Positions 20,001 to 59,222 of a DNA stretch of 64,000 bases are shown piece after piece. Within the stretch, counting starts at the first letter, position 1. Each line of letters opens with the position of its first letter. The position numbers and the translations under genes are program-made. A model generated the notes under the pieces. The model did no database searches and had not been told where the DNA came from. It saw only the letters and a program-made list of their open reading frames with translations. Source of the stretch: an uncultured bacterium (lineage in GTDB: Bacteria > Verrucomicrobiota > Kiritimatiellia > RFP12 > UBA1067); the NCBI GenBank assembly GCA_902780865.1, contig CACZHC010000048.1:2890-66889 (forward strand), given 5' to 3'.

Positions 20001-23000
20001 GGGCCGGGGATATCAATCGGAACGACGACGCGGAAGAAGTTGTCCATAGTGCCGCCATTCTCAACGTCAAGCGCAAGTTCTTCTGTCTTTTCGCCCTTCT
20101 CGAAATTCGCTGTGCCATCGCGCTTAAAGGGAATCATTGAAACAGGCGTCCAGCAGCCATCAAGCCGACCATACCAGTTCGTAGAAATGATTTCCACCTC
20201 TTCGACGTAATTTGTCTCGATGGTGAAGGAGTTGTCGTCCATCGGCACAAGCCCTTCGACAGTATTTGTCGAGATTTCGACGACAATCTTGTAATTGTCG
20301 TAGTCCTCATTGCTGCGACACCAACCATTCACTGCATCGAAGTAAATTGTTCCAATACCATTGGTAAAGCAAGAAGAATAGACTGCCGCATTTTCGATAT
20401 TGCGCATTACAATCTGGCCAGCGAGATTTTGCTTAATCGAAGACGTTCGCGACAAGAAACTCTTAGATGTCGAGGAATAAGGCAAATAGTTTTGATTGGC
20501 AACAAGATTGCCGCTGGCAACCCCGGCGGGGAATGTATTGCCGTGCCGACAATCTACAATTCGCCACAACGTTCTCTCGCCGCCTTTTGTTTTCAGAACG
20601 CTCTCCGTACCAAGCTGGAGGTTGAACGGCAAAGTCTCACTATAAGGATCGCTCTCTGCATTGATATGCGTCCAGTACGTATTAAGCGTGTCGCGGTTGT
20701 CTTTATAGCCTTGGTAGTCAATTGGGCACTTTGTATTCGTATCGCGATTCATCAGGAGAACGCGCCCAGAATCACCATTAGTACCGCCAATTTTAGTATA
20801 CGGCTTCCCTTCGATGACATGCAGGTCAATAAGGTAGTCGACTGGCGTGACGTTTTCGGTCTCGGTCGCGAGGAAGTGGATTCGGTACAAACCCGTCTCG
20901 GTGATGTCGGCCGTGCTTTCGAACGTCTTCGTCGGATCGTACACAGAGTAGATGACGTTGGTGACACCGCCGTAGAGAACCGCAGGCGTATTGGTAATCG
21001 TTCCCGCCGCCTCGTTAACATCCCAGGTCGTCTTGTCCATCTTCGGCGTATCAAGCCAGATGTTCAACCTTAGCCCATCGCGCAGAACTACGGAGTTCGT
21101 AGAGAAGTCAGGATCGCTCAGTATCTCGTATTCGGCCTTGATGCGATCGTCTGTCGGGATGTTCGGGCCGATGCGGCACTCGTCATACGCGCCATTGAGC
21201 GACCATTCGTTGGGAGAGCTGCCCTGCGCACCAAACGCCAATGCACGCGCACCATTAGAAACTGCAGTTATCGAGCCGCTCCCGATCTTTCGCCCATTGG
21301 AATAGACCGTAGCTGTCGTGCCATTGTAAACAAACACCAGATACACCCAACCTTCGTACATATCGTCTACAGCGCCCGATAGCGTAAAGGAAGAGCTGCC
21401 ATTGCCGCGGACGAGAAGTACCGTAGACGAACCATTCGCGGTCTCTATGCTCCAGCCATCGTTGCTGTTGCCGTTGTTCTTTGTGCCGGCAAGCCGTGGA
21501 TAATTTCCCCTGGCGTTCATCTTGAAGAAGCCAGAAAATGTAAACACGCTGCCTGTCGAGAACGACTTGGATGTCTGAAGGCGGTTTCCGTTCTGGACGC
21601 TTGCCACAGAGCTATTCATGCGGCCATTGCCAATTACGCCGTCAACGGAAACCATCTGGTTGAGATTGGCCGATGAGGCACCGCCTTTTTGGGGCGTGGC
21701 GTAGTTTTTCTGGGCGGTGGAGTCGTTTGACCTTGCAGAAGCTGCCTGTGCCGCCGGAATCTCCTCGTCCATGTGCCAGACGCCGGTATAGTCGCTCCAG
21801 ACCTCGGTCGGCTCGTTGGCGACGGGCGGCTCGGCATCGGGGCGGATGTTCCAGTACATCGTGACCGTCATTCCGGTCGGCGGCAAAGTTGCGAGCTTAA
21901 GCCAGACAATCGACTCACCGGTCGTGTTCCAGGTAGCGGCTTCGTAAGGGAGGATCTCGCCGTTGGAGTCAACAAAGAGCATTCCGCTCCCGTCCTGGCC
22001 CGCGAGCGAGTAGTCGAAGCCGGGCATGCGCGCGGTCGATATTTTTACCGGCAGGGGGATGTTTGTCACCGTTTCCGTCGCGCCCGAACGCGCCTTGAAG
22101 TAGATCTCCACAGAGTCGTGGTAGATACGTGCGGGGTCATCCCACATGTCGAACGAAGCCGTCCGAGTAGCCGCCGCCCAGCTTGGCGTTTCGTCAATCG
22201 TGGCGCGGATAATCCATGTGCCCGCCTTGTCGATTGCCGTCACGTCGTTAGTCCATGTCTCGACCGCCGACGCAGTTTCACCGAAACCATATTCATACCT
22301 GACTGTATCAAGGCCGTAGTTCGCGGCGATAAGTATCTCGTTCGGCGTGCCGCCAACGCGCCAGCCCTTAAGCGAAAGCGCCGTAATTGCATTGGCCGCC
22401 GCTCCAATAGTCCACTCACCTGAATACGGTTCAGCAGTCACGGGGTCGACATCCCAGACATAGTTCTCGGCCTCATCATTGCCAAGAAGCGAGAACGTGA
22501 AGGAATGCGCACCGCCATCGGTGGCGTTCGTGACGCCGGCGGTTAGCGCATACCGCGCGTAGTCGAGAGCGGCGAAGCCCTGTTTTTCGGTGCCGTCGTA
22601 GACAAGATCTGTCCTGGGCTCGGGCTTCGCGACTTTAATCGGAGAAATCGTCCACGAACCGTCAAATGGCTCTATCGTGTTGTCGGACCACGCCGTATTA
22701 ACCGTATCGTCCAACGACACTGAAAATGTATACGTCCCCGCGTTCGTCGCATTCGTAACGCTCGATGTGTCGAATGTGCAGTATTCGAGGAAATCATCGC
22801 CGTATGTAACACCGACTTTGGCCGTACCATCGTAAGTGAAGTCTGCCGTTGTCGGCTTTTCTATCGTCCGCTTAACGATCGACCAGTTGACGGTCTTCTC
22901 GCCAGTACCGCCACCAACCCACTCAAGATCGGGGCCAGGCGTTACCTTGAACGAGTAATTGCCGACAGCAGTAGCGTTCGTATCGCCGCTACCATCTACA

Positions 23001-24196
23001 TACGTGTAAGCTATGCCAAAGTCAAGTGCAACCTGGTTGTTCTTGTTAAATGTAAATGGGCCAACAGACGGAAGCGCCACTTTTGTCTCAACAAGCTGAG
23101 TAATACGGACAATAACAACACCACTGCCGCCATTGCCACCAGGAGCAGTCGTACCGCTACCACCACCGCCGCCACCGAGTCCATTCGTCCCAGAGACTGC
23201 ATCAACCGACGTTGAACCACCTCTTCCACCGCCGCCGTCACCGCCAGCTATACCAGTGCTCAATTTTGTGCGGCCACCACCGCCGCCACCAGCATAATAT
23301 ATCGACTCTCCAGTAATGTCGATAGAAAGCCCCGCACCGCCTTTACTTTTTGTAGAGGACGCATCCTGACCAACAGCACCTGCACCGCCGCCGCCCCCGC
23401 CATATGCGACCGCGCCACCTCTACCACCAGCAAAACCAACTTCCGGGGCGACAGCCGTAGAGACGCCTCCATTTTGCGGAGAAGCAGCGGTTGTATAACT
23501 TGCCGAGCCACCGCCGCCACTTGCACCATCATGCCCTACGGACTGCGCACCACCGCCGCCGCCGCCATGGGCAACAATTACATCAAATGATGAGTCCAGA
23601 CCATCACCTCCGTCGGCGGCGACATCAGTTGATGCCGCCGCTTCGCCACCTGCACCAACGGCAATAGAATACACACCACCGACAAGGGTTAGATTTGTCT
23701 CAATCAGGCCACCAGCACCACCACCGCCGCCAGCGCCACCTTGCGTCGACGTACTCGTGCCGCCAGCGCCACCCCCGCCAACAACGAGAACGCGCACATT
23801 GGCCCTGGCAGAATCGTCAACGGTTAGCGAACCTGCGGCTGTAGTGTCGGTGAACTTGAGAACGAGATGATCGTAGGCATCTGCCGTTGCTGGCGTTCCG
23901 TCGGCATTGAGATAAATGACTGTCGCGTTGCTGGACCAAGTGACCTTACCAGCGTTGACGAGCTCGCGCACATCCGCGCGCGCGGCGAGAGAGAACGACA
24001 ATGCCAACAGTGCGGCAAGAGAGGCAAGCCGACGGGAGAGAGTCGTGAGAGAAGAGCCGATGCAGGTGCCGAAGAATTGCGAGATGCCGGCAAGAGTATG
24101 CGCAACGCCACGCGCGGTCACGCTTGTGTGCGTGCGCGTACGCGGCATCGCGAGCGTCCGCGAGGACGCCGCGACTCTCGTTGTGCGGTCCATCAT
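14051..24196 (-). CDS. Giant (3381 aa) secreted surface protein: glycine-rich N-terminal domain, MBG/YDGT Ig-like repeats, DUF2341-like and LamG-like domains, long beta-rich body
   Basis: Uninterrupted 10.1-kb ORF. Hydrophobic signal-like segment LASLAALLALSFSLAARA. Gly-rich block VLVVGGGGAGG...GGNGGSGVVIVRI. Repeated FTYDGTAKVG...NAGTYTFSVSL units. DUF2341-like IYFKARSG...IVWLKLATLPPTGMTVTMYWN, followed by a LamG-like segment (NDGWSIETANGSSTVLLVRGNG...WVYLVFVYNGTTATVYSNGRKIG). The exact start codon is uncertain. Confidence 0.85.
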   Translation of the reverse strand: MMDRTTRVAASSRTLAMPRTRTHTSVTARGVAHTLAGISQFFGTCIGSSLTTLSRRLASLAALLALSFSLAARADVRELVNAGKVTWSSNATVIYLNADGTPATADAYDHLVLKFTDTTAAGSLTVDDSARANVRVLVVGGGGAGGTSTSTQGGAGGGGGAGGLIETNLTLVGGVYSIAVGAGGEAAASTDVAADGGDGLDSSFDVIVAHGGGGGGAQSVGHDGASGGGGSASYTTAASPQNGGVSTAVAPEVGFAGGRGGAVAYGGGGGGAGAVGQDASSTKSKGGAGLSIDITGESIYYAGGGGGGRTKLSTGIAGGDGGGGRGGSTSVDAVSGTNGLGGGGGGSGTTAPGGNGGSGVVIVRITQLVETKVALPSVGPFTFNKNNQVALDFGIAYTYVDGSGDTNATAVGNYSFKVTPGPDLEWVGGGTGEKTVNWSIVKRTIEKPTTADFTYDGTAKVGVTYGDDFLEYCTFDTSSVTNATNAGTYTFSVSLDDTVNTAWSDNTIEPFDGSWTISPIKVAKPEPRTDLVYDGTEKQGFAALDYARYALTAGVTNATDGGAHSFTFSLLGNDEAENYVWDVDPVTAEPYSGEWTIGAAANAITALSLKGWRVGGTPNEILIAANYGLDTVRYEYGFGETASAVETWTNDVTAIDKAGTWIIRATIDETPSWAAATRTASFDMWDDPARIYHDSVEIYFKARSGATETVTNIPLPVKISTARMPGFDYSLAGQDGSGMLFVDSNGEILPYEAATWNTTGESIVWLKLATLPPTGMTVTMYWNIRPDAEPPVANEPTEVWSDYTGVWHMDEEIPAAQAASARSNDSTAQKNYATPQKGGASSANLNQMVSVDGVIGNGRMNSSVASVQNGNRLQTSKSFSTGSVFTFSGFFKMNARGNYPRLAGTKNNGNSNDGWSIETANGSSTVLLVRGNGSSSFTLSGAVDDMYEGWVYLVFVYNGTTATVYSNGRKIGSGSITAVSNGARALAFGAQGSSPNEWSLNGAYDECRIGPNIPTDDRIKAEYEILSDPDFSTNSVVLRDGLRLNIWLDTPKMDKTTWDVNEAAGTITNTPAVLYGGVTNVIYSVYDPTKTFESTADITETGLYRIHFLATETENVTPVDYLIDLHVIEGKPYTKIGGTNGDSGRVLLMNRDTNTKCPIDYQGYKDNRDTLNTYWTHINAESDPYSETLPFNLQLGTESVLKTKGGERTLWRIVDCRHGNTFPAGVASGNLVANQNYLPYSSTSKSFLSRTSSIKQNLAGQIVMRNIENAAVYSSCFTNGIGTIYFDAVNGWCRSNEDYDNYKIVVEISTNTVEGLVPMDDNSFTIETNYVEEVEIISTNWYGRLDGCWTPVSMIPFKRDGTANFEKGEKTEELALDVENGGTMDNFFRVVVPIDIPGPVRFRIRRTTADPNRFPDVSSFILLDNIIASIPAMSADLVSAGHYDAEKTGTQTLGWELATSVPYPSIGDTTNIVAYAKPEFTLNVGDGSTPDTTKFFSSATMHYRWRYLNQTLSQPVSAWKEIDLNPDDDFKSIRPLELPSRPGDVEYWFEYQLQAPYYKYVDYSGAANASIDYTEERGVLTNRLGDASIASGGSDWYFRIRDGKSDYAGLDIVFRRGSSAAEERVHMALAENHVWRGFVQTKENQTGEIQYRIEAMDEQTTAFAEYAEKTNFWYCTVDNPRFPVSEALVPGGEGSWSKLTLDATTGYVMFQIDDTEKSSMALTVVHADYQNANGWSDALARKDSQGRGPIFVGTSTTNEYKIGVSPSKQTFGEDFANWGSMAATNESWTFPTGLTDIQPSHMYGRTAYEPFVSDQNGLWDVGPGMWVAKKYMISSGADAGVGLQMEGQGKGFFQLIDKDSAPRGVESVEFNARLAQFITFEDFNYYDGDVKTSMTNYTFISRVAYDFKQNKFTGNASLSMIAAYLPNKGCYEARWEWISNPNNQKKGGQRLCLYRWNFTSEGKNATLLTAWTNGVNNANAAFAMAAPNALNEAQTFMPFYITVSNANSRTWVAAGVCMTHQNLRENTFPSGNTWNIVACNDNSTQRLKSGTFGVLATNCEGFFGKPQYSPNVVFTAADELKLADGKAGYYTQKARTAPAGLVLRTQGFGTDDTNWNILPGRMATTNVTEFACGVVAAPVPQTLSIYFGTPGRADWNLKAPDKTVTVNNFGGDRFVVPIYKTENCSIRFGVGGTTSSTRRDIAVDSVVLKPWRGGNWDDPDVWPILPEWADDQHRNKAVGHTNFVFTSAWTTNHTILLSAKRAGFETPSAIRSPLMDGFADDGSHGTGYIRGIGLGMISVAYENAQENAVLALQIATNGVDYTTIGGYDKSFSDKIWTTITNFNFAAMTPAQRKKGILNTYIGLHDVKGAMRLMVPTNTILAVRNITDTSKFGDVTITSITCSDEPPVDVHSWWGWNIRTVGGDQDSEKMMFLDDFSTEAGGSGLSLAINNSVDENYSISRIDVADRESYIQHKPFVQTPTFTSNIVGEVVFKARKYSEADPTATVTLYGSRNATETDEGKWERIDGAVFMVSNAWYETYRAKMDPKYKSFRLAVAGVEGVVEDSDGGGNGLPAGANDPPPRVLLDEMFVSEAVNAIMGFKHVGCFRHDMSGLGVVPNVPSRDEQPICEEAWGVQCEIYGAQLASDIDFTHTPRVKLHWFDGIAPWGYENWKDSPSAHSAWLSRAIETDEDRFVYRSTMRTSPDAVIPMSLAAPSYVQYTLEVVFYTKENPTVPVTNWLNSSDWKIPEWYRPLDLNAQYGGSGDFAAYNILDNIAPGWAWINEVNLFGDFVKWRNTDEDCQFIEIAHPPEADVSGWTVRLLEGQMGNNWVITNDLARFGRDGLSGTKQLPAEDAEVNMVFRVIGSPLSRSSGRLKKSDGTLDGVWKVDNPTLVFTSDGVVSYYDPIVFQLVRTSGIVEHEIIVQGTNYLESLEIENPGYLGEMRDWMAARMPDSEIVMAGYDFGGPANSLSVTQHFGRCGMTIAPDDWNHPTNDWKTVVKMTPGHHNIGQVIDPNHPVPAGEEVLVYFTVTGDHIEQSLDGSNFTNGMFSAIVTKNNPVGTNVIYRVDPWYVLDNVRTGSVSLVDQVQQTKATQPFEYTLSGVAKGVSNNVTVVASAALNPKFGTDWGVPEDDPYRDAIIDWLEGGTDLYGNPFEDVASGEIRLATHRSWWSGAVMTNLTLREMYWLDMDPTVGKLSLLAGTTFDPNGIEHIVTKAMGESSLVLTNRRLYVYMMISNENETVAAPTHPRGAHDFTTHWTPYVLRGVSPGENSQEYVASTGEWESVTFKITGMLMNSATSFYVADNKVPLRHFVFNANSFSAEGLSKIEVYDPYSPLSVGYNAGWKRWWDKNGYCPVVFFWMIDTRLPPIGVEQLQEDNYYGD

Positions 24197-24983: not shown

Positions 24984-26309
24984 CTACATATCCGCAATAG
25001 ACAGAAGCCCGGACTTCTGCCTAAGATTGCGCTTCTCGGGATTCTTCTCAAAAAACTTCTCGATCTTCTCCCTGAGCTTCGCGTCACTGTATCGTCCTGG
25101 GTTCGTCTTGACCTCAAAGAATGCTATTTCACCGCCAAGCTCGTCTTCGCACACCAAATCAATCTCTTCGGATCCCTTACGATCCCACCAGGCACCCATC
25201 TTGGCATACGACGTTGTCTCGGTGAACTTCCAGTGGAAATAGCGCTCTAAGGCATAGCCACTGAACACGTCGAAATCCCGCAATGCAATTTCACGCAGCT
25301 GTTCGTACCGCTCAAGCTCAATATAGCCCCTGTACTTGAAGACAAAGCGAAACCAGAACCGGAAAAAGCAGTCGTCGATCTGGTAATGGCAGTTCTTCCC
25401 CGTCGGCTTATCGAAAATCGGCTGCTTCTTCGATACTAACTGATATTGCTCTTCAAGTTTGGTGAGATAGCCATTGACGTCCACGCCAATAAGGTTCTTC
25501 AACTCCGCAGTAGTCGTAGCACCAGAAGCTATGGCCGAAAGAATCGTGAAGTATACGCCGTAATCCGGGCCGAACTCCTCGGCGAGTATGGCGCGACCTT
25601 CGGGCAGATACGACGATCCCGGCGAAAAGATGGTGTCGATCATCTGCCTGCGGGTGAGCGCCTTTGCCCCCGTCATCATGTTTACGTAACGTGCGACGCC
25701 TCCAGTCACCGTCCAGAGGGCAAGGAGGTCTTCGGGCGTGTAATCTGGCTTGAACTCTGACAGTATCTGCTTCAATAGAGAGACCTTGAACGGCTTGAGC
25801 GTAAAACTTGCCGTGTTGCGCCCGTACAAAGGTTCCCCGTCGTTAAAGAATATCTTATTCATCAATCTGTTTATGCTTCCGCACACCACCAGATTGATCT
25901 TTGAAGACGAATGATATTCATCCCATATTGCGGCAACCTGGCTGAACACAGCATCGTTAATTCTGTCAAATTCCTGAAACTCGTCGAGAACCACGGTGAA
26001 TCGTCTTGTCTGCGACGCTTTCATGATGATTTTAAACAAATCTGAGAAAGTTTCGCATGTACCAAGGATTCCAAGATTAAGAATCTGTTCAACTTCCGCC
26101 TGAAGTTCCCGACAAAGCATTCGTTCGCTTTGACGGGTAATCGGCAGATGCACATAGGGTATCACCCCATCATCAAGCGCATTGCGCAAAAGCGCCGTCT
26201 TGCCCACGCGCCGGCGACCAGTAATGACGACAAACTGCGCTTCTTCGGCTGAAATATCCCTCCACCTGCGGAGCATTTCGACCTCTTCCTCCCGTCCGAA
26301 AAACTTCAT
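24984..26309 (-). CDS. AAA+ ATPase (archaeal-type ATPase domain plus DUF234-like C-terminus), copy 1
   Basis: 441-aa ORF MKFFGREEEVEMLRRW...VVITGRRRVGKTALL (Walker A), VVLDEFQEF (Walker B). About 60% similar along its full length to the ORF at 44827..46117. Confidence 0.85.
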   Translation of the reverse strand: MKFFGREEEVEMLRRWRDISAEEAQFVVITGRRRVGKTALLRNALDDGVIPYVHLPITRQSERMLCRELQAEVEQILNLGILGTCETFSDLFKIIMKASQTRRFTVVLDEFQEFDRINDAVFSQVAAIWDEYHSSSKINLVVCGSINRLMNKIFFNDGEPLYGRNTASFTLKPFKVSLLKQILSEFKPDYTPEDLLALWTVTGGVARYVNMMTGAKALTRRQMIDTIFSPGSSYLPEGRAILAEEFGPDYGVYFTILSAIASGATTTAELKNLIGVDVNGYLTKLEEQYQLVSKKQPIFDKPTGKNCHYQIDDCFFRFWFRFVFKYRGYIELERYEQLREIALRDFDVFSGYALERYFHWKFTETTSYAKMGAWWDRKGSEEIDLVCEDELGGEIAFFEVKTNPGRYSDAKLREKIEKFFEKNPEKRNLRQKSGLLSIADM

Positions 26310-26365
26310 TGTCGCCCCCTTTTGAAAATGGTTGTTTTGAAAACGGCTGTTTTTAATCCGCGGAT

Positions 26366-26394
26366 ATTATGGCATTATTTAGCATCCTTGTCAA
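26366..26394 (-). promoter_or_regulatory. Sigma70 promoter TTGACA-17-CATAAT for ATPase copy 1 (shared promoter module)
   Basis: The minus strand reads ggattgacaaggatgctaaataatgccataatat. A 36-bp stretch is identical apart from 3 mismatches to 30441-30476, upstream of vapB. Confidence 0.55.
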
Positions 26395-26410
26395 TCCCCC
26401 GCAGGGTTTT

Positions 26411-26555
26411 ATTGGAAACAACTTTTTCATGGTGTGCGGGCTAACATGCCCGCACTTTCTTTTCTCGCCGCGAAACCTCGCGGCGCCCTCAAATCGCCGC
26501 GCTTGTTGCGCGGCGTAAAGAAGTTGTTTTTACAAGTTGTTTCAGTTGTTTCCCC
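26411..26555. repeat. Inverted-repeat-bounded hairpin cluster (ggaaacaac ... gttgtttcc) with GTTGTTT iterations
   Basis: ttggaaacaac at 26411-26421 faces gttgtttttacaagttgtttcagttgtttcc at about 26524-26555. Three GC hairpins lie between them (gtgcgggc..gcccgcac, gccgcga..tcgcggc, gccgcgc..gcgcggc). The GTTGTTT module recurs at 29521-29560 and 30491-30530. Confidence 0.45.
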
Positions 26556-26590
26556 TACACGTTCTGCATGTTCTACACGGCTAAAATCAC

Positions 26591-26617
26591 AAAAACCCGC
26601 GGCATTTCTGCCGCGGG
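26591..26617 (-). terminator. Intrinsic terminator hairpin (conserved module CCCGCGGC-loop-GCCGCGGG plus U-tract) after the hicB-like gene
   Basis: The minus strand reads cccgcggcagaaatgccgcgggttttt, an 8-bp GC stem followed by a T-run. The same module occurs at 28603, 28740, 29731 and 30936. Confidence 0.65.
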
Positions 26618-26644
26618 CGTTGATCCATTCTGATCTAATGGAAG

Positions 26645-26848
26645 TCATCCAGCTATTGCGGTGCGCCGCCCACGCATTGATAACTGCCACGCACTCGCAA
26701 GCCAAGCAGCAACGGCATCCTGAATCAGGGCGCGAACTTCCTCCAGCGTCTCGCCCTGCGTGACGCATCCGGGAAGCGACGGTACTTCCGCCCAATACCC
26801 AGTCTTAGGTGCGTTGCACTTGTGAATAATTGCTTTCAGACCATCCAT
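26645..26848 (-). CDS. hicB: HicB-like antitoxin-fold protein (short, possibly C-terminally truncated); no hicA partner seen
   Basis: 67-aa ORF. The segment GYWAEVPSLPGCVTQGETLEEVRALIQDAV matches the typical HicB/UPF0150 N-terminal motif. The tail AWQLSMRGRRTAIAG looks atypical. Confidence 0.6.
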   Translation of the reverse strand: MDGLKAIIHKCNAPKTGYWAEVPSLPGCVTQGETLEEVRALIQDAVAAWLASAWQLSMRGRRTAIAG

Positions 26849-26873
26849 ATATGCTCGCTTTCTTTGTGTGCGT

Positions 26874-26903
26874 AGTATAGCACATGCGCCGCCATCGCGT
26901 CAA
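26874..26903 (-). promoter_or_regulatory. Sigma70 promoter TTGACG-17-TATACT for the hicB-like gene
   Basis: The minus strand reads gttgacgcgatggcggcgcatgtgctatactacg, about 25 nt upstream of the ATG. Confidence 0.5.
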
Positions 26904-26975
26904 CGGTCGGCAAGATAAACCCCACTCTACTCGACCCCGAAACAAAAACCCGCGGCGGAAGTGCCACTGTTTTTG

Positions 26976-27250
26976 TTTAGGGTCACTTAGGGTCTATTAG
27001 CGTCATTTAGGGTCAATGTAGAGTCTTGAGCCCCTACCAGCCCCTACCAGCCCATAACCGACCCTAACCGACCCAACCAGACCCTAACTGACCCTAACCG
27101 ACTCTAACCGACCCAACCAGACCCTAACTGACCCTAACCGACCCTAACCGACCCAACCAGACTCTAACTTGACCCTAACCGACTCTAACCGACCCTAACC
27201 GACTCTAACCGACTCTAACCGACCCTAACTGACCCTAACCGACCCTAATA
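26976..27250. repeat. 10-bp phased tandem array: about 5 units TTAGGGTCNN, then about 22 units of the inverse GACYCTAACY, abutting the stop codon of the four-helix-bundle gene
   Basis: The sequence stays in register with the 10-base print blocks: accctaaccg acccaaccag accctaactg accctaaccg actctaaccg ... The orientation flips at about 27029. Confidence 0.9.
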
Positions 27251-28012
27251 CCCATAAATCCTCTTGACCTCCATGATCTTCCTCGCCCGCTCCCTATTGA
27301 CCTCCAGCATCGAGAGCCCATCCGTCTTGACATCCACCTTGCAATCAAAGCAGCGCCACTTATACTCCAAAACTCCATTACTACTCGTCGTCCCATCACT
27401 CATCAGTTTGCCGCATTTAGGGCACTTCACGCCATAGCTCTTCGCCTCTTTCATCGCCGCATCGCGATTCTTTGCCGCCGCCGCCTTGGCCACCGGCTTC
27501 ATCCGCCCACGCAAGTCACCAGACTCCTTAAACTGCTTCTCTAACGCCTCAAGCTGGCGATGGAGAATGTAATCTTCTTGTTTTAGCAGCACAATCGCCA
27601 TATTTGCGACCACTTCACCATCCCTCTGCTCGGCAATTGCGAGATAGGGGGCGGAGTCGAGATGCTCCTTTGCGAAGTTGCGGAGCCATGCGATTTCTTT
27701 TCCGTCCTTATCCCACTGTCTAAGTCGCCGAGTGCGGAGGTAGTCCTCGAAGTCAGTTAGGAGTTCCTTTAGGGAGGCCTTGGCGACATTGACGAGCTTG
27801 ATTTCGGTTTCGGCGTTGGTGGAGGAAGCGGCGACGCCTTCGGCGATATTTTGTTTGCCGCTGCGGGCGGCCTGGATCATTTGGTCGATGGTGCGGTCGC
27901 CTTTAGAGAGATATTTTTGGCAGAAGTGGTAGGTTAGGTCGAAGATGACTGTTGCTTTTTTAAAGGTCAGGAGTTCCTTATAGTTGCCTCGATTTTTCAA
28001 GATGATGTTCAT
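27245..28012 (-). CDS. Four-helix-bundle protein (23S rRNA IVS protein / Avd-like family) with extended C-terminus and CxxC...CxxC zinc ribbon
   Basis: MNIILKNRGNYKELLTFKKATVIFDLTYHFCQKYLSKGDRTIDQMIQAARSGKQNIAEG is the characteristic N-terminus of this family. The C-terminus carries KCPKCGKLM...WRCFDCKV. I prefer the ATG at 28012 (RBS aaaggaa) over the track start at 28039. Confidence 0.8.
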   Translation of the reverse strand: MNIILKNRGNYKELLTFKKATVIFDLTYHFCQKYLSKGDRTIDQMIQAARSGKQNIAEGVAASSTNAETEIKLVNVAKASLKELLTDFEDYLRTRRLRQWDKDGKEIAWLRNFAKEHLDSAPYLAIAEQRDGEVVANMAIVLLKQEDYILHRQLEALEKQFKESGDLRGRMKPVAKAAAAKNRDAAMKEAKSYGVKCPKCGKLMSDGTTSSNGVLEYKWRCFDCKVDVKTDGLSMLEVNRERARKIMEVKRIYGY

Positions 28013-28036
28013 TAGGGCCGTTCCTTTTTTTAGGGT

Positions 28037-28095
28037 CAATTAGGGTCGGTTAGAGTCGATTAGAGTCGATTAGGGTTTTAGAGTCTGATGGTTCA
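28037..28095. repeat. TTAGRGTC 10-bp units (about 6) immediately upstream of the four-helix-bundle gene
   Basis: ttagggtcaa ttagggtcgg ttagagtcga ttagagtcga ttagggtttt agagtctgat. Confidence 0.85.
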
Positions 28096-28195
28096 ATTGC
28101 GCTTATATGATACCATAGGAAGGCAGAGAGAAATGGGTCATGAATAGGTTTTTGGTGGGTCTTTTTTGACCCACAGCAATATCCCCCGACCGTCT

Positions 28196-28393
28196 CTAAA
28201 AGCGCCAAACTCGACCCTAAACCGACCCTACCAGACTCTAACCGACTCTAACTGACCCTACCAGACTCTAACCGACCCTAACTGACCCTACCAGACTCTA
28301 ACCGACTCTAACTGACCCTACCAGACTCTAACCGACTCTAACTGACCCTACCAGACTCTAACCGACCCTAACTGACCCTACCAGACTCTACCA
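28196..28393. repeat. Tandem array with 30-bp higher-order unit (3 x 10 bp: GACCCTACCA GACTCTAACC GACYCTAACT), about 6 copies
   Basis: gaccctaccagactctaaccgac[tc]ctaact repeats head to tail. It has the same 10-bp phase and word family as 26976-27250. Confidence 0.9.
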
Positions 28394-28602
28394 GCCCTTC
28401 CCGCTCCCCGCGAGAAGCCATGCCCTCCATTCGGAGAGGCCGTTCTTCACGAGAAACTTTGCGACTGCAAACCTTCGCTCCCGACTTCCTTCGCCCGCAC
28501 CCTCGCGGGTGCAAACTTGTCTTCTACTCTCGAGTTCTTCCTAACAGGTCTCTTGGAGATTTCCACTCCAGACCTTGTATCATGTCCTGCGTACAACAAA
28601 AA

Positions 28603-28624
28603 CCCGCGGCGTTTCTGCCGCGGG
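28603..28624 (-). terminator. Orphan copy of the conserved terminator hairpin module
   Basis: cccgcggcgtttctgccgcggg, preceded by caacaaaaa. No intact gene lies directly upstream on the minus strand. Confidence 0.45.
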
Positions 28625-28632
28625 CATGCCCG

Positions 28633-28669
28633 CTACCCTCAGGGTAGTTCCCTGCTACCCTCAGGGTAG
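28633..28669. promoter_or_regulatory. Two copies of a perfect 15-bp palindrome CTACCCTCAGGGTAG, 22 bp centre to centre (candidate operator)
   Basis: gCTACCCTCAGGGTAGttccctgCTACCCTCAGGGTAGt, read directly from the sequence. Confidence 0.5.
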
Positions 28670-28739
28670 TCGCCCTCGACCTCCGAGCTCATAACCCTAC
28701 CCGACTCTAACCAGACCCTAATCGACCCTAAAACAAAAA

Positions 28740-28761
28740 CCCGCGGCGTTTCTGCCGCGGG
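28740..28761 (-). terminator. Intrinsic terminator (conserved module) after the RelE/XRE pair
   Basis: The minus strand reads cccgcggcagaaacgccgcgggtttttgtttt. Confidence 0.6.
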
Positions 28762-28852
28762 CGTTGTTTATCTTATGCCATTGCGAGCGACGCCCTGCGT
28801 TTACGCCTCAAATTTGCGCCGCGATGAGCTTCGCGGGATTTATTCTTCTCTT

Positions 28853-29098
28853 TTACGCATTTGAAAACTGCAGCGGGTAGTCTTTGCCGCCTATTTCAAT
28901 CTGAAGCTTTAGAATACCGCCAAGTGCGCTGGAAATATGAAGGCGATCAGCAACCTCCACCTGCGTGACACCAAGCTCGCGGCGAATCTGCGACAAGACA
29001 TATTCGCGGTTCATATCTGAAGCCGCAGTTTCATTTGCCGCCCTGCGCTCTGGCGACATCTTATCACGCAAACGATTAAAGGAACGATGTCCGCTCAT
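28853..29098 (-). CDS. XRE-family HTH antitoxin (HigA-like), short variant
   Basis: 81-aa ORF MSGHRSFNRLRDKMSPERRAANE...LSQIRRELGVTQVEVADRLHIS. It overlaps the upstream toxin stop by 4 nt. It appears to lack about 25 aa relative to usual family members. Confidence 0.75.
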   Translation of the reverse strand: MSGHRSFNRLRDKMSPERRAANETAASDMNREYVLSQIRRELGVTQVEVADRLHISSALGGILKLQIEIGGKDYPLQFSNA

Positions 29099-29463
29099 GA
29101 TTTGTCCTCCTGTTTTATTTCTTTTAGATGTTCCTCAAATATACGCTCCGCTTTGGGCACATTTTCGATATACCACCGGTCATTTCCTGTCTTATCACCT
29201 CCAATAAGCAACAAAGCAGATCGAGCAGGATCAAAAGCATACAGAATTCTTATGGGATGCCCGTCGCTCTGGATGCGAAGCTCTCGCATTGCAAACCTTG
29301 CGCCATTGATTGCAGAGGAATACGGGAAGCCGAGCGTCGGGCCATGTTCTTCAAGAAGCATGACGACACGGTCGATATCGTCTTGCATCCCTTCCGCAAG
29401 TTCTACCCACCATGTCTCAAACTCATCAGTGTATTCAACTGTCCAATTTTTGTTCACGCACAT
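29095..29463 (-). CDS. RelE/ParE-superfamily toxin (phage Gp49-like, HigB-type)
   Basis: 122-aa ORF. WTVEYTDEFETWW...LLEEHGPTLGFPYSSAINGARFAMRELRIQSDGHPIRILYAFDPARSALLLIGGDKTGNDRWY is a textbook Gp49/RelE family sequence. Confidence 0.9.
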   Translation of the reverse strand: MCVNKNWTVEYTDEFETWWVELAEGMQDDIDRVVMLLEEHGPTLGFPYSSAINGARFAMRELRIQSDGHPIRILYAFDPARSALLLIGGDKTGNDRWYIENVPKAERIFEEHLKEIKQEDKS

Positions 29464-29493
29464 AGTATAGCATATTTCCTATATCGCGGTCAA
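29464..29493 (-). promoter_or_regulatory. Sigma70 promoter TTGACC-18-TATACT for the RelE/XRE operon
   Basis: The minus strand reads gattgaccgcgatataggaaatatgctatactatg. The transcript would be essentially leaderless. Confidence 0.45.
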
Positions 29494-29520
29494 TCGCCGT
29501 TCGCTGTGCCCTTGCGCTCT

Positions 29521-29689
29521 ATTGGAAACAACATAAACAACTTTTGAAAACAACTTTTTCTGTCTGGTAGGGGCGGCTCGGCACTCGCTTCGCTCGGCTT
29601 GGCTCGCTACAAATCGCGAGCCCCGCTTACGCGGCGGTTACCTCCGTGCCGTCCGCATACAACGGACGCCTCGGAGAGGCGTCCCTACC
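29521..29689. repeat. Intergenic repeat module: GTTGTTT-iteration block plus extended (124-nt) GGTAGGGGCG...CGTCCCTACC multi-hairpin element
   Basis: ttggaaacaacataaacaacttttgaaaacaactttttctgtct, then ggtaggggcggctcggcactcgc...cggacgcctcggagaggcgtccctacc. It is near-identical at both ends to 30491-30894. Confidence 0.8.
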
Positions 29690-29730
29690 AACACCATGCC
29701 CGGCTCGCTTTCACGCTCCATAAACAAAAA

Positions 29731-29752
29731 CCCGCGGCGTTTCTGCCGCGCG
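29731..29752 (-). terminator. Terminator module (slightly degenerate) 6 nt after the vapC stop
   Basis: cccgcggcgtttctgccgcgcgg, preceded by aaacaaaaa on the plus strand. Confidence 0.5.
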
Positions 29753-29757
29753 GCAAG

Positions 29758-30159
29758 TTAGCCAACAACTCTCTCCAACAATGGCACATTGCCAAAGTGA
29801 GCATCTAACGAATGCACCACCGCCCCTTTCGTGATTGCGCATGCCGCAATCCATAAGTCATTTTGCGGAATTGGCGTTCCGTTTGCCTTCAGAACTCTAA
29901 AAATCCTGGCATACGCATTTGCGACATCTTCAGTAACTCCCACAATCTTTACTGCCGTGGAATCAAGAAACATCTCAAGCGCCGAAAGCTGTTGGTGACC
30001 TACAGCCGTTTCGACAGCGACTCCAGCCTTGTATTCACCGATCACAACAGTGGGAACAAGAATTTGCTCATAAGTCGACACTACTTTCGCGATTTTCTCG
30101 TTCCCGCGAAGGAACTTTATCAAAACATTTGTATCGAGCAATAGCGGCATCATTTCCAC
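29758..30159 (-). CDS. vapC: PIN-domain ribonuclease toxin VapC (copy 1)
   Basis: 133-aa ORF. LLLDTNVLIKFL and NDLWIAACAI are PIN motifs. The GTG/ATG start overlaps the antitoxin stop. Confidence 0.85.
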   Translation of the reverse strand: MEMMPLLLDTNVLIKFLRGNEKIAKVVSTYEQILVPTVVIGEYKAGVAVETAVGHQQLSALEMFLDSTAVKIVGVTEDVANAYARIFRVLKANGTPIPQNDLWIAACAITKGAVVHSLDAHFGNVPLLERVVG

Positions 30160-30410
30160 ATCTCCTCGTCAATCGTGCCAAATGCTGACTGCGTCGCCTC
30201 AAGCTCGCTACAATCTGTATCTTTTAGAATGCCGCAGAATTTCCCAAGATCATTCCGCGGCTCCGTGGCACGACAGCGCGCAAATCCGATAATGGGGGCG
30301 ATAATTTCCTTTAGCGCAGCATTGACGCTTACTCCCTTTTTGTCGGAATACGCTCGAATTGCATATATGAAATCACTCTCAGCCCTAAAAGTTAATGCGG
30401 CAATAGCCAT
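30150..30410 (-). CDS. vapB: VapB-type antitoxin (copy 1)
   Basis: 86-aa ORF directly upstream of, and overlapping, vapC. It shares the C-terminal IDEEMWK and the RAY.D..G.S.N core with the ORF at 36371..36616. Confidence 0.65.
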   Translation of the reverse strand: MAIAALTFRAESDFIYAIRAYSDKKGVSVNAALKEIIAPIIGFARCRATEPRNDLGKFCGILKDTDCSELEATQSAFGTIDEEMWK

Positions 30411-30442
30411 GACATCCTCCTTGCATCATTTTTATGCATCAT

Positions 30443-30471
30443 ATTATGGCATTATTTTGCATCACTGTCAA
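30443..30471 (-). promoter_or_regulatory. Sigma70 promoter TTGACA-17-CATAAT for vapBC-1 (shared promoter module)
   Basis: The minus strand reads ggattgacagtgatgcaaaataatgccataatatg. It is near-identical to 26366-26400. Confidence 0.55.
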
Positions 30472-30490
30472 TCCCCTTCAGTGTTATATT

Positions 30491-30894
30491 GGAAAACAAC
30501 ATAAACAACATTTGAAAACAACTTTTTCTGTCTGGTAGGGGCGGCTCGGCACTCGCGTTGCTCGGCTTGGCTCGCTACAAACCGCGAGCCCCGCTTACGC
30601 GGCGGTTACCTCCGTGCCGACCGCGCACACCGGACGCCCTGGTAGGGGCGGCACTCCGTGCCGACCGCGCACCCACAAATATGGGCGTGGCGCAATTGTC
30701 TTCTCATGCGCCCCTCTACCCCAACTCTCGCATGCGCCCGATTTTTTCATTTCCTGCGGCGCCTGCCGCAGCGGTCACGCCGGAGGCGTGCCCCTACCAG
30801 CGAACCCATCGGTAGGGGCGGCAACACCGCTTCGGTAGGGGCGGCACCCCGTGCCGTCCGCGTACAACGGACGCCTCGGAGAGGCGTCCCTACC
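30491..30894. repeat. Expanded intergenic repeat cluster: GTTGTTT block plus several nested GGTAGGGGCG / CCCCTACC half-elements
   Basis: ggtaggggcgg occurs at about 30534, 30640, 30813 and 30829. cccctacc occurs at about 30790 and 30887. The ends match 29521-29689. Confidence 0.8.
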
Positions 30895-30935
30895 AACACC
30901 ATGCCCAGCTGGCTTTCACGCTCCATAAACAAAAA

Positions 30936-30957
30936 CCCGCGGCGTTTCTGCCGCGGG
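30936..30957 (-). terminator. Intrinsic terminator (conserved module) after the 843-aa gene
   Basis: The minus strand reads aaagcccgcggcagaaacgccgcgggtttttgttt. Confidence 0.65.
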
Positions 30958-30984
30958 CTTTGTTTTGTGTTCTTCAGTGATCTC

Positions 30985-33516
30985 TTACTGGAGGAACGCC
31001 TTGAAGAACGTACCGGTCGAGCTCTCGGTCTTGCAACCGACGTCAGAGTACTGCTTCACAACAACCTCGCCGTTGTAGCCGCGCTCGTTATAGCTCGTCG
31101 TCGTCGCCGTGACCCACTTCGACTGCGTGGTATCGTAGCTAATCGACGTGAACTTGAACGCCGCCTTCGCATCTGCAACCTCGCTCGGCTTGCAGTTCAG
31201 GAGGTAAGCTTCCTCGTTCGAGCCAGACGCATCCGGGAAGTCAGCAGCACTGATTTCAGCATACGCCGCCCAAGTGTCATACTTGGTCTTTTCCGTATCG
31301 TCGATGTAGCTCGGATAGGTCTTACCACCCTTCTCCGTCGGACCAGGAATCGCGACAGTGCCAGCCTCAGAGACCTCGATGGTGATCTCACCATCCTGGC
31401 CAGCCGTCCAGCCGGTCGGCGGCGTGGCATACTCATAGTTCGCGGCGGGCGTCGCGGTGATAACGATCGTCTGACCGACCGTGACCGTAAGGACGTCATT
31501 ATCGGGCGTAATCGCCGATCCACCAACCTTGTAGGCCGCGGCATACGTCGTGTTGTTGGTCGGAATCACGGTGACCGTGTAGGTGCCAAGCGTCTGCACC
31601 GTCGGACCAGGAATCGCGACCGTGCCAGCCTCAGAGACCTCGATGGTGATCACACCCTCGGAGAGCGTCCAGCCGGTCGGCTCCTCAGCATACTCGTAGC
31701 CCGAGTTCGGCGTCGCGGTGATTACGATCGTCTGACCGACCGTGACCGTAAGGACGTCGTTATCAGGCGTAATTGCCGTGTTATCCGACTTGTATGCCGC
31801 AGTGTAGGTCGCATTCGCAGTCGGCGTCACCGTGACCTGGTAGGTTCCAATCGGCTGCGCACCGCCGCCAACCTGGAAGTAGTTGTTTTCAATTGCCGTT
31901 GCTGTTACACTACCGTCAACAAAGCTGTTGAGGTAGAAGTTCGTATCGCCAATTTCCTCTGGGCAGTTGAGGAACTTGCCACCAAAGAGCGTGAGACCAA
32001 AAGACTCGGAATCAATGACAATTGCGGCATCAAAAGAACCTCCATAGATGGTTGTAGTTCCGCCGCCAATGATGACCGCGCCTGATCCGCCAGTAACATG
32101 GCCAATCTCGGCCGTGCTATTGGTGATAATAAGGTTGGCAGCACCATTGTTGATGCCATATTCGGTACCCGTTATCGTCTTGCCTGCAAGGTCAATGATG
32201 ATATTCCCTCCGTCACTCAGCTCAATGTCACTATGCATAGCGTCAGCTGTATAATTCGCAACAAGCTTAAGGGTACCATAGGTATCGCCCGACTTTAGTG
32301 CCGCAGCTACGGCATCCGAAATCTTGTCATACTTTACTCCATTGACCTCAAAGTACGGGAACATCGACACGATGTTGCATATCTCACCAGAAGCAAGATC
32401 AACAAAGCTGCTGGTTGCAGAATCCCACGAACCATTCTTGTCAGTTGTGAATGTGCCAGCTTCCCAACCAGACGCAAACGTTACGTCAACGAGGACTGCA
32501 CCTTTGTCGGGATTAATATCTACGCTTCCCGCAGTGCCAGCAGAAAAGCCAGCGACCGACTCACCATTGAGCGTGAGAGTCGCAACATGCTCATCCCATG
32601 TGACGGTAACCACCGAAGACTCCTGAATGAAGCTCGGCTTTGTCGCCGTGAACGAAACATCGTCAATGAAGCCATTGCCGGAGAAGGCAACAGAGGAAAT
32701 AGTGCTGCCGCCAATATCTTCCGCCGCAACTGCGCTCGGGAAGAGCGCGTGCTTGCCGGAGTTGTAGAACGTCTGGGCAAGAGCATTTAGGGTGCCGAAG
32801 CCAGCATCAACATCCGTGGAATATTCAAGCGTCTTCGTCATATTGCCATCAAGGTAAATGACGAAACCGACATTGCCGTCACCAACATCGGCAATCGTGC
32901 GAACCGTAAGACGATGCCACTCATCTTTGTTGAAGCCAGCGGGAACCGCTGCAACGTAGTTCGTCTGGACGATTTCCTGCCCGCCAACAAAGCCAGCGCG
33001 GATGACGAAGTTGGTGTAGCCCTCGTCGCCTTCCTCGGCCTCGTGCTCGACATACTCAATCGCAATCTTGTCGCCACCAGTCAGATCCTCAGCAAAGGCC
33101 TCATCGGCTGCCGTGAACTTCACGAGCGTGTCGAGGTAGATGCCATCGCTGCCAATGTCAACACCAGTAACGGACGAAGCCCCAGCGTTGGGAAGCGCAG
33201 TACGAACAAGCGGAGCCGTCGTATCAATTTGAAGGGACTTCGTGTTTGCCTGGTTCTGGTTGGCAAACAGATCAGGCCGACTCACGCTTTGACCCGCGAC
33301 ATCATTGGTAATCGCACCGAGCTCGTCGGTCGCAGGGGCCGTGGAGTACCAATAGAATTCGCTTCCGCTAGGGTCGCCCGAATCATCTTTGTTGACAACA
33401 CCGCCAACATCTACGGGGCCTTCGGTCAAGGCCTCAAAACTTGTGCCAGTTGGAAGGTCACCGAACGAGAACATCGTCGTCGCGGCGGCTGCCAATGCAA
33501 TCATTAGTTTTTTCAT
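30985..33516 (-). CDS. Secreted 843-aa protein: LamG-like N-domain, beta-helix-like middle, two 88-aa Ig-like tandem repeats
   Basis: Signal peptide MKKLMIALAAAATTMFSFG. WHRLTVRTIADVGDGNVGFVIYLDGN is a LamG-like strand pattern. The repeat GTYxVTVxPT.N.TY.AAYK....AITPDNDVLTVTVGQTIVITATP occurs twice. Confidence 0.85.
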   Translation of the reverse strand: MKKLMIALAAAATTMFSFGDLPTGTSFEALTEGPVDVGGVVNKDDSGDPSGSEFYWYSTAPATDELGAITNDVAGQSVSRPDLFANQNQANTKSLQIDTTAPLVRTALPNAGASSVTGVDIGSDGIYLDTLVKFTAADEAFAEDLTGGDKIAIEYVEHEAEEGDEGYTNFVIRAGFVGGQEIVQTNYVAAVPAGFNKDEWHRLTVRTIADVGDGNVGFVIYLDGNMTKTLEYSTDVDAGFGTLNALAQTFYNSGKHALFPSAVAAEDIGGSTISSVAFSGNGFIDDVSFTATKPSFIQESSVVTVTWDEHVATLTLNGESVAGFSAGTAGSVDINPDKGAVLVDVTFASGWEAGTFTTDKNGSWDSATSSFVDLASGEICNIVSMFPYFEVNGVKYDKISDAVAAALKSGDTYGTLKLVANYTADAMHSDIELSDGGNIIIDLAGKTITGTEYGINNGAANLIITNSTAEIGHVTGGSGAVIIGGGTTTIYGGSFDAAIVIDSESFGLTLFGGKFLNCPEEIGDTNFYLNSFVDGSVTATAIENNYFQVGGGAQPIGTYQVTVTPTANATYTAAYKSDNTAITPDNDVLTVTVGQTIVITATPNSGYEYAEEPTGWTLSEGVITIEVSEAGTVAIPGPTVQTLGTYTVTVIPTNNTTYAAAYKVGGSAITPDNDVLTVTVGQTIVITATPAANYEYATPPTGWTAGQDGEITIEVSEAGTVAIPGPTEKGGKTYPSYIDDTEKTKYDTWAAYAEISAADFPDASGSNEEAYLLNCKPSEVADAKAAFKFTSISYDTTQSKWVTATTTSYNERGYNGEVVVKQYSDVGCKTESSTGTFFKAFLQ
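31339..31866. repeat. Intragenic tandem duplication, 2 x 264 bp
   Basis: cggaccaggaatcgcgac[ac]gtgccagcctcagagacctcgatggtgatc starts both units, at 31339 and 31603. Differences between the units are of all base types. Confidence 0.85.
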
Positions 33517-33611
33517 TTTGTTACTCCTGATTTGTCTTTGAAATTTGTGTGCACACTTTTTCTAGACACGCACATCATACCAAATTTCTTTCTCCCCCGC
33601 AAGGGGGAAAA

Positions 33612-33646
33612 TTAAAAAATTTTCACCCGCCTGGGGGAAGCGGGTG
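33612..33646 (-). terminator. Intrinsic terminator after abiEii
   Basis: The minus strand reads cacccgcttcccccaggcgggtgaaaatttttt. Confidence 0.55.
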
Positions 33647-33677
33647 GAGGATGGGGAGAACTGTGGGAGAGGGCGAG

Positions 33678-34721: not shown

Positions 34722-34724
34722 AAG

Positions 34725-53470: not shown

Positions 53471-53545
53471 CGGGTTGGAGTTGGAGTCTTGAGTTGGAGA
53501 ATGGAATTCTAAATTCCTCTCTCGAACTCGAACTTTGAACTCCAA
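53471..53545. repeat. Imperfect palindrome of GGAGTTGGAGT / AACTCCAACT words centred on GAATTC
   Basis: gggttggagttggagtcttgagttggagaatggaattctaaattcctctctcgaactcgaactttgaactccaac. The same word family occurs at 62021-62107. Confidence 0.7.
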
Positions 53546-53549
53546 CTTC

Positions 53550-59189: not shown

Positions 59190-59222
59190 CTTAAACCTAT
59201 TTCTCCAAAGTGATGTGAGCAA

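Follow-up and report, generated by a model that had tools for sequence, protein, structure and literature searches.

Arrays of short tandem repeats around a four-helix-bundle suffix gene as possible recognition sites for its product

What might be the role of 10-bp repeats that close in on a single gene from both sides and reach into its first and last codons? The locus that raises this question lies in the window, by which we mean the whole 64-kb stretch of DNA analysed here (contig CACZHC010000048.1, from an uncultured bacterium of the Kiritimatiellia), and the enclosed gene encodes a basic four-helix-bundle protein with a C-terminal zinc ribbon. It was first pointed out in a reading of the bare sequence, hereafter the original prediction. 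Here, we find that the architecture of the locus is conserved in close relatives, that similar arrays accompany the gene family across phyla far more often than they do control open reading frames (ORFs), and that the repeat motif follows the protein clade. We tentatively propose, with rather less than even confidence, that gene and arrays form one conserved module in which the encoded protein recognises the arrays, mostly as part of the transcript, the binding itself being what we infer.

Arrays were detected with Tandem Repeats Finder (TRF) and with a separate scan for the 8-bp core allowing at most one mismatch, and their coordinates and motifs are given on the + strand unless the gene strand is stated. 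The cassette comprises:

26952-26967, - strand: weak terminator-like hairpin with T-run that closes the cassette, found by a terminator scan within a copy of the dispersed AAAACAAAAACCCGCGGCG element
26977-27017, gene on the - strand: distal short array, TRF period 10, 4.1 copies of TTAGGGTC on the + strand, on the gene strand four copies of GACCCTAA
27018-27031: orientation flip, a 14-bp turn between the distal short array and the long downstream array
27032-27248: long downstream array, TRF period 10, 21.5 copies of GACCCTAA on the + strand, on the gene strand TTAGRGTCNN
27245-28012, - strand: four-helix-bundle gene, 255 amino acids, product basic with pI 9.4
28013-28029, - strand: putative ribosome-binding region, with AAAGGAA separating the ATG from the last repeat unit, read from the sequence
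28030-28085: proximal short array, GACYCTAA on the gene strand, about 5-7 units; TRF finds 28030-28076, period 10, 4.7 copies of TTAGGGTC
28086-28211, - strand: spacer of 126 bp with a putative extended -10 element TGGTATCAT at 28115-28107 and a hairpin GTGGGTC-A6-GACCCAC at about 28155-28174
28212-28390: long upstream array, a 30-bp higher-order unit repeated 5.9 times (TRF), equal to 17.5 ten-mers, on the gene strand TTAGRGTCNN
28603-28761, - strand: upstream border, two dispersed terminator-like hairpins (28603-28624 and 28740-28761) enclosing an array remnant
28694-28731: array remnant, TRF 3.7 copies

The repeats had been described as about 27 units downstream of the gene with a flip in orientation, about 6 directly upstream and about 20 further upstream in a 30-bp higher-order repeat, and TRF returns each of these arrays. 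Their periodicity is borne out independently by the spacing of cores, which step by 10 bp throughout except for two 11-bp steps and one 8-bp step at a ragged array end, apparent 20-bp steps being degenerate units that the scan skipped. The long downstream array also has a higher-order unit, of 40 bp and repeated 5.4 times (TRF). As for the two remnants proposed, that at 28684-28733 was recovered, and the other, at 61840-61860, amounts to no more than two CCCTAA words 7 bp apart and is not counted; beyond these, the core scan of the 64-kb window returned scattered single near-matches and no further cluster. Short-read unitigs end within the arrays in metagenome assemblies, so that exact copy numbers in the window may depend on assembly.

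Each unit consists of a conserved core, TTAGRGTC, and a free 2-bp spacer: in the unit logo T2, A3, G4, G6, T7 and C8 are near-invariant (TAG.GTC), positions 9-10 are nearly free, and, although anchoring inflates core conservation somewhat, the contrast between core and spacer is real. Near-invariant cores with free spacers suggest binding sites. A conserved core of 7-8 bp beside a free spacer also agrees with the view that the arrays are neither CRISPRs nor microsatellites; a CRISPR array, with repeats of about 23-50 bp and unique spacers of like length, is ruled out by 10-bp units made of an 8-bp core and a 2-bp spacer, and no cas genes were seen among the nearby called genes. The idea that all motifs sit on one face of the helix is only approximately true, because the textbook pitch of B-DNA is 10.5 bp per turn and a 10-bp period therefore falls behind by a whole turn in the course of about 21 units.

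Read on the gene strand, the cassette runs from a long TTAGRGTC array through the promoter-like spacer and a short GACYCTAA array to AAAGGAA, the ATG and the ORF, and continues from a second long TTAGRGTC array, which starts at the stop codon, through the 14-bp turn and a short GACCCTAA array to the weak terminator. The arrays do touch the stop codon and the start of the gene, as had been claimed: the stop codon TAG (27245-27247) falls within the first unit of the long downstream array, and the ATG (28010-28012) within a CCCTAATG unit. AAAGGAA or a similar GGA-containing stretch precedes the ATG in aligned orthologues, and TGnTATCAT or TGaTATAAT stands at the place equivalent to TGGTATCAT in the diverged orthologues L011, L015, L101, L106, L128 and L146. 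With TGGTATCAT as a putative extended -10 promoter element, the proximal short array, between this conserved box and the ATG, is probably a 5' untranslated region (UTR). As single strands, both long-plus-short modules of the window fold into long imperfect hairpins (-129.6 and -166.2 kcal/mol, z -8.4 and -8.7); the distal short array, inverted with respect to the long downstream array, pairs with part of it, and the cassette ends in a stable 3'-terminal hairpin. Between the two hairpins of the upstream border, a near-palindrome, GCTACCCTCAGGGTAG, is duplicated at 28632-28669 and carries the core of the arrays, TAGGGT/ACCCTA, as an inverted pair.

The product of the enclosed gene is arranged as a four-helix bundle, 'suffix' helices, a basic linker, a CPKC/CFDC zinc ribbon and a C-terminal helix. 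Its description as an Avd-like four-helix bundle with a C-terminal zinc ribbon was right at the level of fold and family, as the NCBIfam profiles, an AlphaFold2 model and Foldseek agree. Among NCBIfam profiles, TIGR04258 ('four helix bundle suffix') scores 45.2 bits against a cut-off of 40 over residues 133-172 and TIGR02436 32.6 bits against a cut-off of 24, and PF05635 of Pfam (23S rRNA intervening sequence protein) reaches 31.3 bits, just under its gathering score of 33.8; close homologues carry the name 'four helix bundle suffix' at JGI, NCBI and RefSeq. The AlphaFold2 model (mean predicted local distance difference test score 86.6) is a helical bundle with two more long helices, a small beta zinc ribbon and a C-terminal helix. 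Foldseek matches it to 2RLD (BT_0352, 'S23 ribosomal protein family') with a probability of 0.99 and a target TM-score of 0.73, and finds the zinc-ribbon part to resemble RPB9-type zinc ribbons, these being its only specific structural neighbours; a sequence search of solved structures gave nothing significant. The stretch RSGKQNIAEG is invariant among homologues, fits the family signature S..xNIAEG and resembles the published family consensus GxxRxxxSxxxNxxE (PMC3936711). A known defence protein was ruled out, as PADLOC gave no match.

Close relatives keep the layout of the locus and vary its copy numbers. The identical protein occurs on 23 contigs from ruminant gut metagenomes and a 96% relative in a goat Kiritimatiellae metagenome-assembled genome (MAG), and across orthologous loci with 64-100% protein identity the order and polarity of the arrays are unchanged, with synteny between species at 72% protein identity. 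Unit numbers range from 5 to 32 in the long downstream array, from 5 to 17 in the long upstream array, even where the protein is identical, and from 2 to 19 in the proximal short array, which is found in every orthologous locus; the distal short array, of 4-6 units, is present in most loci that extend that far. The idea of a fixed pentamer-sized short array was dropped in view of the 2-19 units of the proximal one. Array lengths thus differ between strains, a comparison that the original prediction had suggested, and even within one DNA metagenome (run X3) a variant of the upstream long array is 131 bp shorter. Most contigs of close homologues are about 1 kb long and end in arrays.

The same run holds an allele without the whole cassette (26937 joined to 28600) beside the cassette-bearing one, and a second cassette-less joint, 26949 to 28740, was found in run X26, whose library is labelled GENOMIC RNA-Seq. 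Both joints fall in the terminator-like hairpin CCCGCGGCGTTTCTGCCGCGGG. This hairpin has a read depth of 20-60x in metagenomes, with many different continuations, and is therefore a dispersed REP-like repeat, whereas array read depth is 2-3.5 times the single-copy level, from which it follows that the arrays are essentially confined to the locus in the window genome. In the window, CCCGCGGCGTTTCTGCCGCGGG with its T-run stands on the - strand at 26596-26617, 28603-28624, 28740-28761, 29731-29752 and 30936-30957, closing each small cassette of the surrounding island.

To place the locus in a wider context, we scanned the family with one genome per species, which gave 80 loci with relatives at 46-96% identity from Bacteroidales, Kiritimatiellae, Planctomycetota, Verrucomicrobiota, Lentisphaerota, Chlorobiaceae and others. 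Short-period arrays lie beside the gene in 59-62 of the 80 loci at loose thresholds. With the threshold made strict (three or more copies of a unit of 9 or 10 bp, scored 40 or higher by TRF and no more than 150 bp from an ORF end) they are found at 39 of the 80 homologous loci and at 3 of 118 control ORFs from the same loci (odds ratio 36, p = 1.5e-15), so the arrays are not at random sites unlinked to the gene family. The downstream array begins at most 50 bp past the stop codon in 40 of 45 loci, in a few overlapping it, and the upstream array ends 0-70 bp ahead of the ATG in 27 of 39. An array stands beside the gene in a long-read contig too, and in the complete genome of a cultured species, Prevotella nigrescens (FDAARGOS_1486, locus K8O81_RS09930), where RefSeq names the gene 'four helix bundle suffix domain-containing protein' and, in the 100 kb around it, 6 of 10 CCTAG/CTAGG words lie in the single array beside it.

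The period is 9 bp in most lineages, and 10 bp in the zinc-ribbon clade of the window and one small Bacteroidales subclade; strict helical phasing, which had been stressed, is consequently not what the relatives share. The units of different clades are akin but distinct: those of Bacteroidales read CCYTAAAGN, Gemmataceae and Opitutaceae have CCTATAAGT or CCCTATAGG and another clade has CCCTAGTAG, and the motif tracks the protein clade even across host phyla. CCCATRCYT is common to proteins of Victivallales, Pirellula and Verrucomicrobiia that cluster together, CCATCASTC to those of Blastocatellia and Schlesneria, and a Kiritimatiellae protein nested among Bacteroidales proteins bears a 9-mer of Bacteroidales type. 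Regarding vehicles, the search for a phage origin found no relative among 2.9 million viral contigs, and a homologue occurs on 1 of 72,556 plasmid records, which itself bears housekeeping genes such as ileS, nuo and nqr.

How might such a module work? In our proposal the ligand would be the (TTAGGGTCNN)n / (GACCCTAANN)n arrays, bound by the encoded protein, probably as an oligomer, with the repeated cores serving as a series of many equivalent sites along the transcript. Long and short arrays, being inverted to each other, could form long imperfect hairpins, or a panhandle between the 5' and 3' ends that would bury the start and stop codons, and the outcome may be that the gene regulates its own expression or the fate of its mRNA, or that a ribonucleoprotein is built; arrays elsewhere in some genomes may serve as further targets. 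For a role in RNA speaks the polarity of the arrays, constant relative to transcription in the window clade: polarity that follows transcription, together with a short array that is probably 5' UTR, favours RNA no less than duplex DNA. Among Bacteroidota, 7 loci have a TAnnTTTG box 23-36 nt ahead of the point where the array starts, and 5 others have it between array and ATG. Array-bearing flanks across the family fold better than shuffled sequences (median z -2.8 downstream and -1.7 upstream, -0.37 in controls).

RNA data bear on both the gene and the arrays. Rumen metatranscriptome contigs, few and of low depth, cover part of the window gene, and CCTTAAAG-type arrays are abundant in mouse-gut metatranscriptome contigs, also at the ends of RNA contigs of 5-8 kb, with DNA carry-over possible. 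In mouse-gut metatranscriptomes (runs X46-X48), the contig depth summed across the CCTTAAAG-type array of locus L059 (2885-2995) reaches about 100 to 1,800 and that of the adjoining four-helix-bundle gene is 0, and the same runs contain many array-only contigs of 39-79 nt.

A precedent is Avd. This highly basic protein assembles into a pentameric barrel and recognises one particular RNA segment of about 27 nt, which is encoded next to the Avd gene itself (PMC6182149). The window protein shares with it the fold family (PF05635/TIGR02436), the basic character and the non-coding stretch beside the gene; it differs in adding the TIGR04258 suffix and a zinc ribbon, and its neighbouring non-coding DNA consists of tandem 10-mers, not of a unique spacer RNA. 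The locus is not itself a diversity-generating retroelement (DGR): neither the called genes up to 10 kb away in each direction nor the scanned ORFs include a reverse transcriptase (RVT_1), template and variable repeats not having been searched for. Reading of many evenly spaced short motifs on one RNA by a ring-shaped or multimeric protein, the mechanism favoured in our proposal, is familiar from TRAP and the trp leader, HutP, and CsrA with CsrB. Those proteins are unrelated to the present one, their cores are 3 nt long and their arrays do not stand on both sides of the regulator's gene.

Several observations weigh against our proposal. One of the long arrays sits upstream of the putative promoter, and RNA coverage of the window locus is too thin for mapping of UTRs. 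About half of the homologous loci are without a clear array at the strict threshold, and the co-variation of motif and protein could come from linkage alone. Clades that differ in motif have the same family-wide invariant residues, so that specificity would have to reside in variable parts of the protein. Outside the window clade, orientation is mixed, both between array and gene and between upstream and downstream arrays, which fits recognition of a single-stranded sequence poorly unless quasi-palindromic units matter; a constant orientation rule for the family was looked for among the relatives' loci and not found. Finally, identical 10-mer arrays exist in other organisms without the gene, at 42 of the 52 loci retrieved by a reverse search of metagenomes for three consecutive GACCCTAANN units.

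That search, which found the gene at the other 10 loci and no other recurring neighbour family, qualifies the claim that the 10-mer family is tied to four-helix-bundle genes: it holds from the side of the gene, and the motif is not exclusive. Among gene-less loci some look eukaryotic, with VHS, SH3 and UIM domains encoded next to them, others are truncated where the contig stops and several are ordinary intergenic stretches in GC-rich rumen bacteria; where neighbours are readable, array polarity is as in the window, with 3-5 copies of GACCCTAA a few bases ahead of start codons in L100, L117, L123, L136 and L120, and TTAGGGTC past stop codons in L110 and L111. Such orphan arrays could be further targets, remnants or convergent repeats. 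In L120 (about 1170-1330), from another rumen bacterium, four GACCCTAA units stand 7 nt ahead of the ATG of a gene whose N-terminus, MATKEATKKAGGTALDAVMSQIRKEFGEMAIMRLGDQQ, resembles RecA by eye.

The arrays may alternatively be duplex-DNA sites of operator, iteron or centromere type, on which the protein or a host factor would polymerise, as ParR does on parC, to repress the gene or organise the DNA locally. The arrangement of arrays on either side of a promoter-like spacer, the conserved cores with free spacers and a basic protein with a zinc ribbon would all suit this account, as would a long array upstream of the promoter, which cannot act in the gene's own transcript, and the mixed orientation in other clades, easily accommodated by duplex sites. 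We nevertheless consider it unlikely: most of the array mass lies 3' of the ORF, most relatives have a period of 9 bp, which does not keep helical phase, plasmids carry hardly any members of the family and viral contigs none, and the known relative Avd binds RNA (PMC6182149). The context is moreover chromosomal, since dnaA and gidA share the window about 30 kb from the arrays, and no Rep, ParA/ParM or ParR-type gene is among the called genes within 10 kb.

What survives of the iteron- or centromere-like reading in the original prediction is therefore the look of a recognition array and a layout resembling R1 parC around the promoter-like spacer; its chromosomal setting and the lack of Rep, ParA, ParM or ParR neighbours tell against the rest. 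Like the parC/ParR system of R1 and like iterons, the locus has short direct repeats of about helical-turn length around a promoter, next to the gene of the presumed binder, but it has no ATPase, actin-like or Rep gene, its protein fold is not ribbon-helix-helix, most of its repeats are 3' and its relatives have a period of 9. Plasmid iterons were accordingly ruled out, given a chromosomal locus without Rep neighbours and the single plasmid record with a homologue, and a parC-type centromere likewise, with no partition NTPase or ribbon-helix-helix adaptor nearby and only the geometry in common.

Also unlikely in our view is that the arrays are kept for structure only, as inverted or quasi-palindromic sequences whose RNA hairpins or panhandles (terminators, stabilisers, RNase III sites) would set the ORF apart from neighbouring transcripts while the protein does not bind them. 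A parallel exists in the intervening sequences of 23S rRNA, in which genes of the family occur and whose excision takes place at a stem, with the ORF enclosed by complementary, stem-forming flanks. The array modules and flanks do fold strongly, the repeat unit at the start codon, GGCCCUAAUG, and the one at the stop codon, UAUUAGGGUC, are complementary (as read from the sequence), and the orphan L110 has a 'long plus short inverted' array after an ordinary gene. Yet half of the upstream/downstream array pairs are direct, not inverted, the self-complementarity of units is only slightly above that of shuffles, and structure alone leaves unexplained why members of a protein clade from different phyla retain the same specific core and why only the spacer is free. 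The window locus resembles the intervening-sequence ORFs in protein family and in complementary flanks able to form a stem; its flanks, by contrast, are tandem arrays and its gene has its own promoter-like element and ribosome-binding site. An intervening sequence as such was ruled out, as nothing in the window reaches an Rfam threshold, for rRNA or for any other family. A G-quadruplex was rejected as a general account, since a GGG every 10 nt fits the window clade but most relatives' units (TTAAAGTCC, CCTATAAGT and others) are without G-runs.

It is improbable that the arrays are a functionless by-product, either slippage- or recombination-prone repeats hitch-hiking with a horizontally moving cassette or scars of insertion. 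Copy numbers do change fast, the higher-order units are recent (95% identity), the whole cassette is missing in some strains, and other short-period intergenic arrays with different motifs exist in the same genome: GTTGGAG/CTCCAAC arrays at 53474-53548 and 62014-62100, with periods of 6-13 bp and partly inverted, show that the four-helix-bundle locus is not alone in having short tandem repeats in inverted blocks. Neutral arrays, however, would not stay at both ends of the ORF, with core and polarity kept, at 50-60% protein identity across phyla, and the cassette deletions end in dispersed hairpins, not in arrays. Cyanobacterial STRR heptamer arrays, for which we know of no linked gene family, and Drosophila foldback elements are likewise intergenic short tandem repeats with inverted blocks, higher-order units and variable length; they belong to other organisms, and the window locus keeps its synteny between species. 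REPtrons, in which RAYT, an HUH transposase gene, is flanked by palindromic REP units, are alike in that a gene is flanked by clade-specific short repeats with further intergenic copies in some genomes, but the repeats here are tandem 9-10-mers against palindromes of 20-40 bp and are confined to the gene in the two genomes sampled. A REP/RAYT system was thus rejected, a four-helix bundle not being an HUH Y1 transposase and the arrays being local, and for the same locality a genome-wide REP-like family was ruled out in the window genome and P. nigrescens.

A type III toxin-antitoxin-like system (ToxIN, CptIN, TenpIN), in which the array would be transcribed to a repetitive RNA that neutralises the protein as ToxI does ToxN, is very improbable, for although the island around the module holds toxin-antitoxin and abortive-infection genes, the module's array stands directly upstream of the gene with a hairpin between (repeats, hairpin, gene), and three-unit higher-order repeats of 27-30 nt are frequent, the protein matches neither a PADLOC entry nor a nuclease-like fold, a unit is 9-10 nt long (10 nt in the window) against known antitoxin repeats of about 34-45 nt, arrays flank the gene on both sides and in both orientations, 3' arrays included, and the higher-order units, 30 nt here, are not conserved between strains.

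The surrounding island (24984-35534), made up of toxin-antitoxin and defence cassettes, includes a DUF234 ATPase (PADLOC candidate PDC-S27), a HicB-like gene, AbiEi/AbiEii, a Gp49/HigB-like gene with an adjoining small ORF (called HTH_3 in L001 and L002), and a PIN gene with a small upstream ORF in a VapBC-like layout; its content varies by strain, with a PDDEXK_3 gene in place of the ATPase in L003, L005 and L006. On the - strand at 14051-24196 lies the gene of a 3381-residue glycine-rich protein, related loci matching Gly_rich_2, and wherever the downstream flank is readable (L001-L003, L011, L128 and L130) the zinc-ribbon four-helix-bundle gene is upstream of such a giant glycine-rich-type gene. 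One or two small genes stand between them in several loci, and L151 has arrays and the giant gene only. At the far end of the window lie dnaA (57774-59222, with its stop at 57774) and gidA/mnmG (59336-61309), and three copies of an 11-bp repeat, CTGTTTCTACC, at 57746-57779 overlap dnaA at its 3' end; comparable repeats of the TGTAGAAA type are found near dnaA in L011, and 57746-61309, some 30 kb from the arrays, may be an origin region. At 54086-54145, TTGAGGGA is repeated 7.6 times inside an ORF (53858-54334, - strand) with HTH_3 and double zinc ribbon domains, a coding and not an intergenic repeat.

Returning to recognition of the arrays by the encoded protein, the PF05635/TIGR02436 family concerned is large: a query with the N-terminal 175 residues, bundle plus suffix, collects 2,903 cluster representatives at E <= 0.001. 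It is also present in cas loci (PMC3936711), and with its members in rRNA intervening sequences and defence islands has a known role for the DGR member Avd only. Full-text literature searches of limited reach found no paper that links the family to flanking tandem repeats, which is weak evidence that the association of gene and arrays had not been described before. More speculatively, and with somewhat lower confidence than in our reading of the window locus, TIGR04258 proteins and their arrays of 9-10 nt may constitute an unrecognised, horizontally moving recognition module in Bacteroidota, phyla of the PVC group and others, in which an Avd-like oligomer would recognise clade-specific tandem motifs, either in the transcript that encodes it or in single-stranded nucleic acid. 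The arrays break short-read assemblies, so such loci stay hidden in MAGs, and they are length-polymorphic strain markers. A conserved partner sequence beside the gene makes a family of 'function unknown' directly testable for binding, with the co-varying pairs of motif and protein across clades as built-in specificity controls. If true, the wider proposal would give a first functional handle on the large non-DGR part of the 23S intervening-sequence/Avd family, and with it natural, matched pairs of protein and motif.

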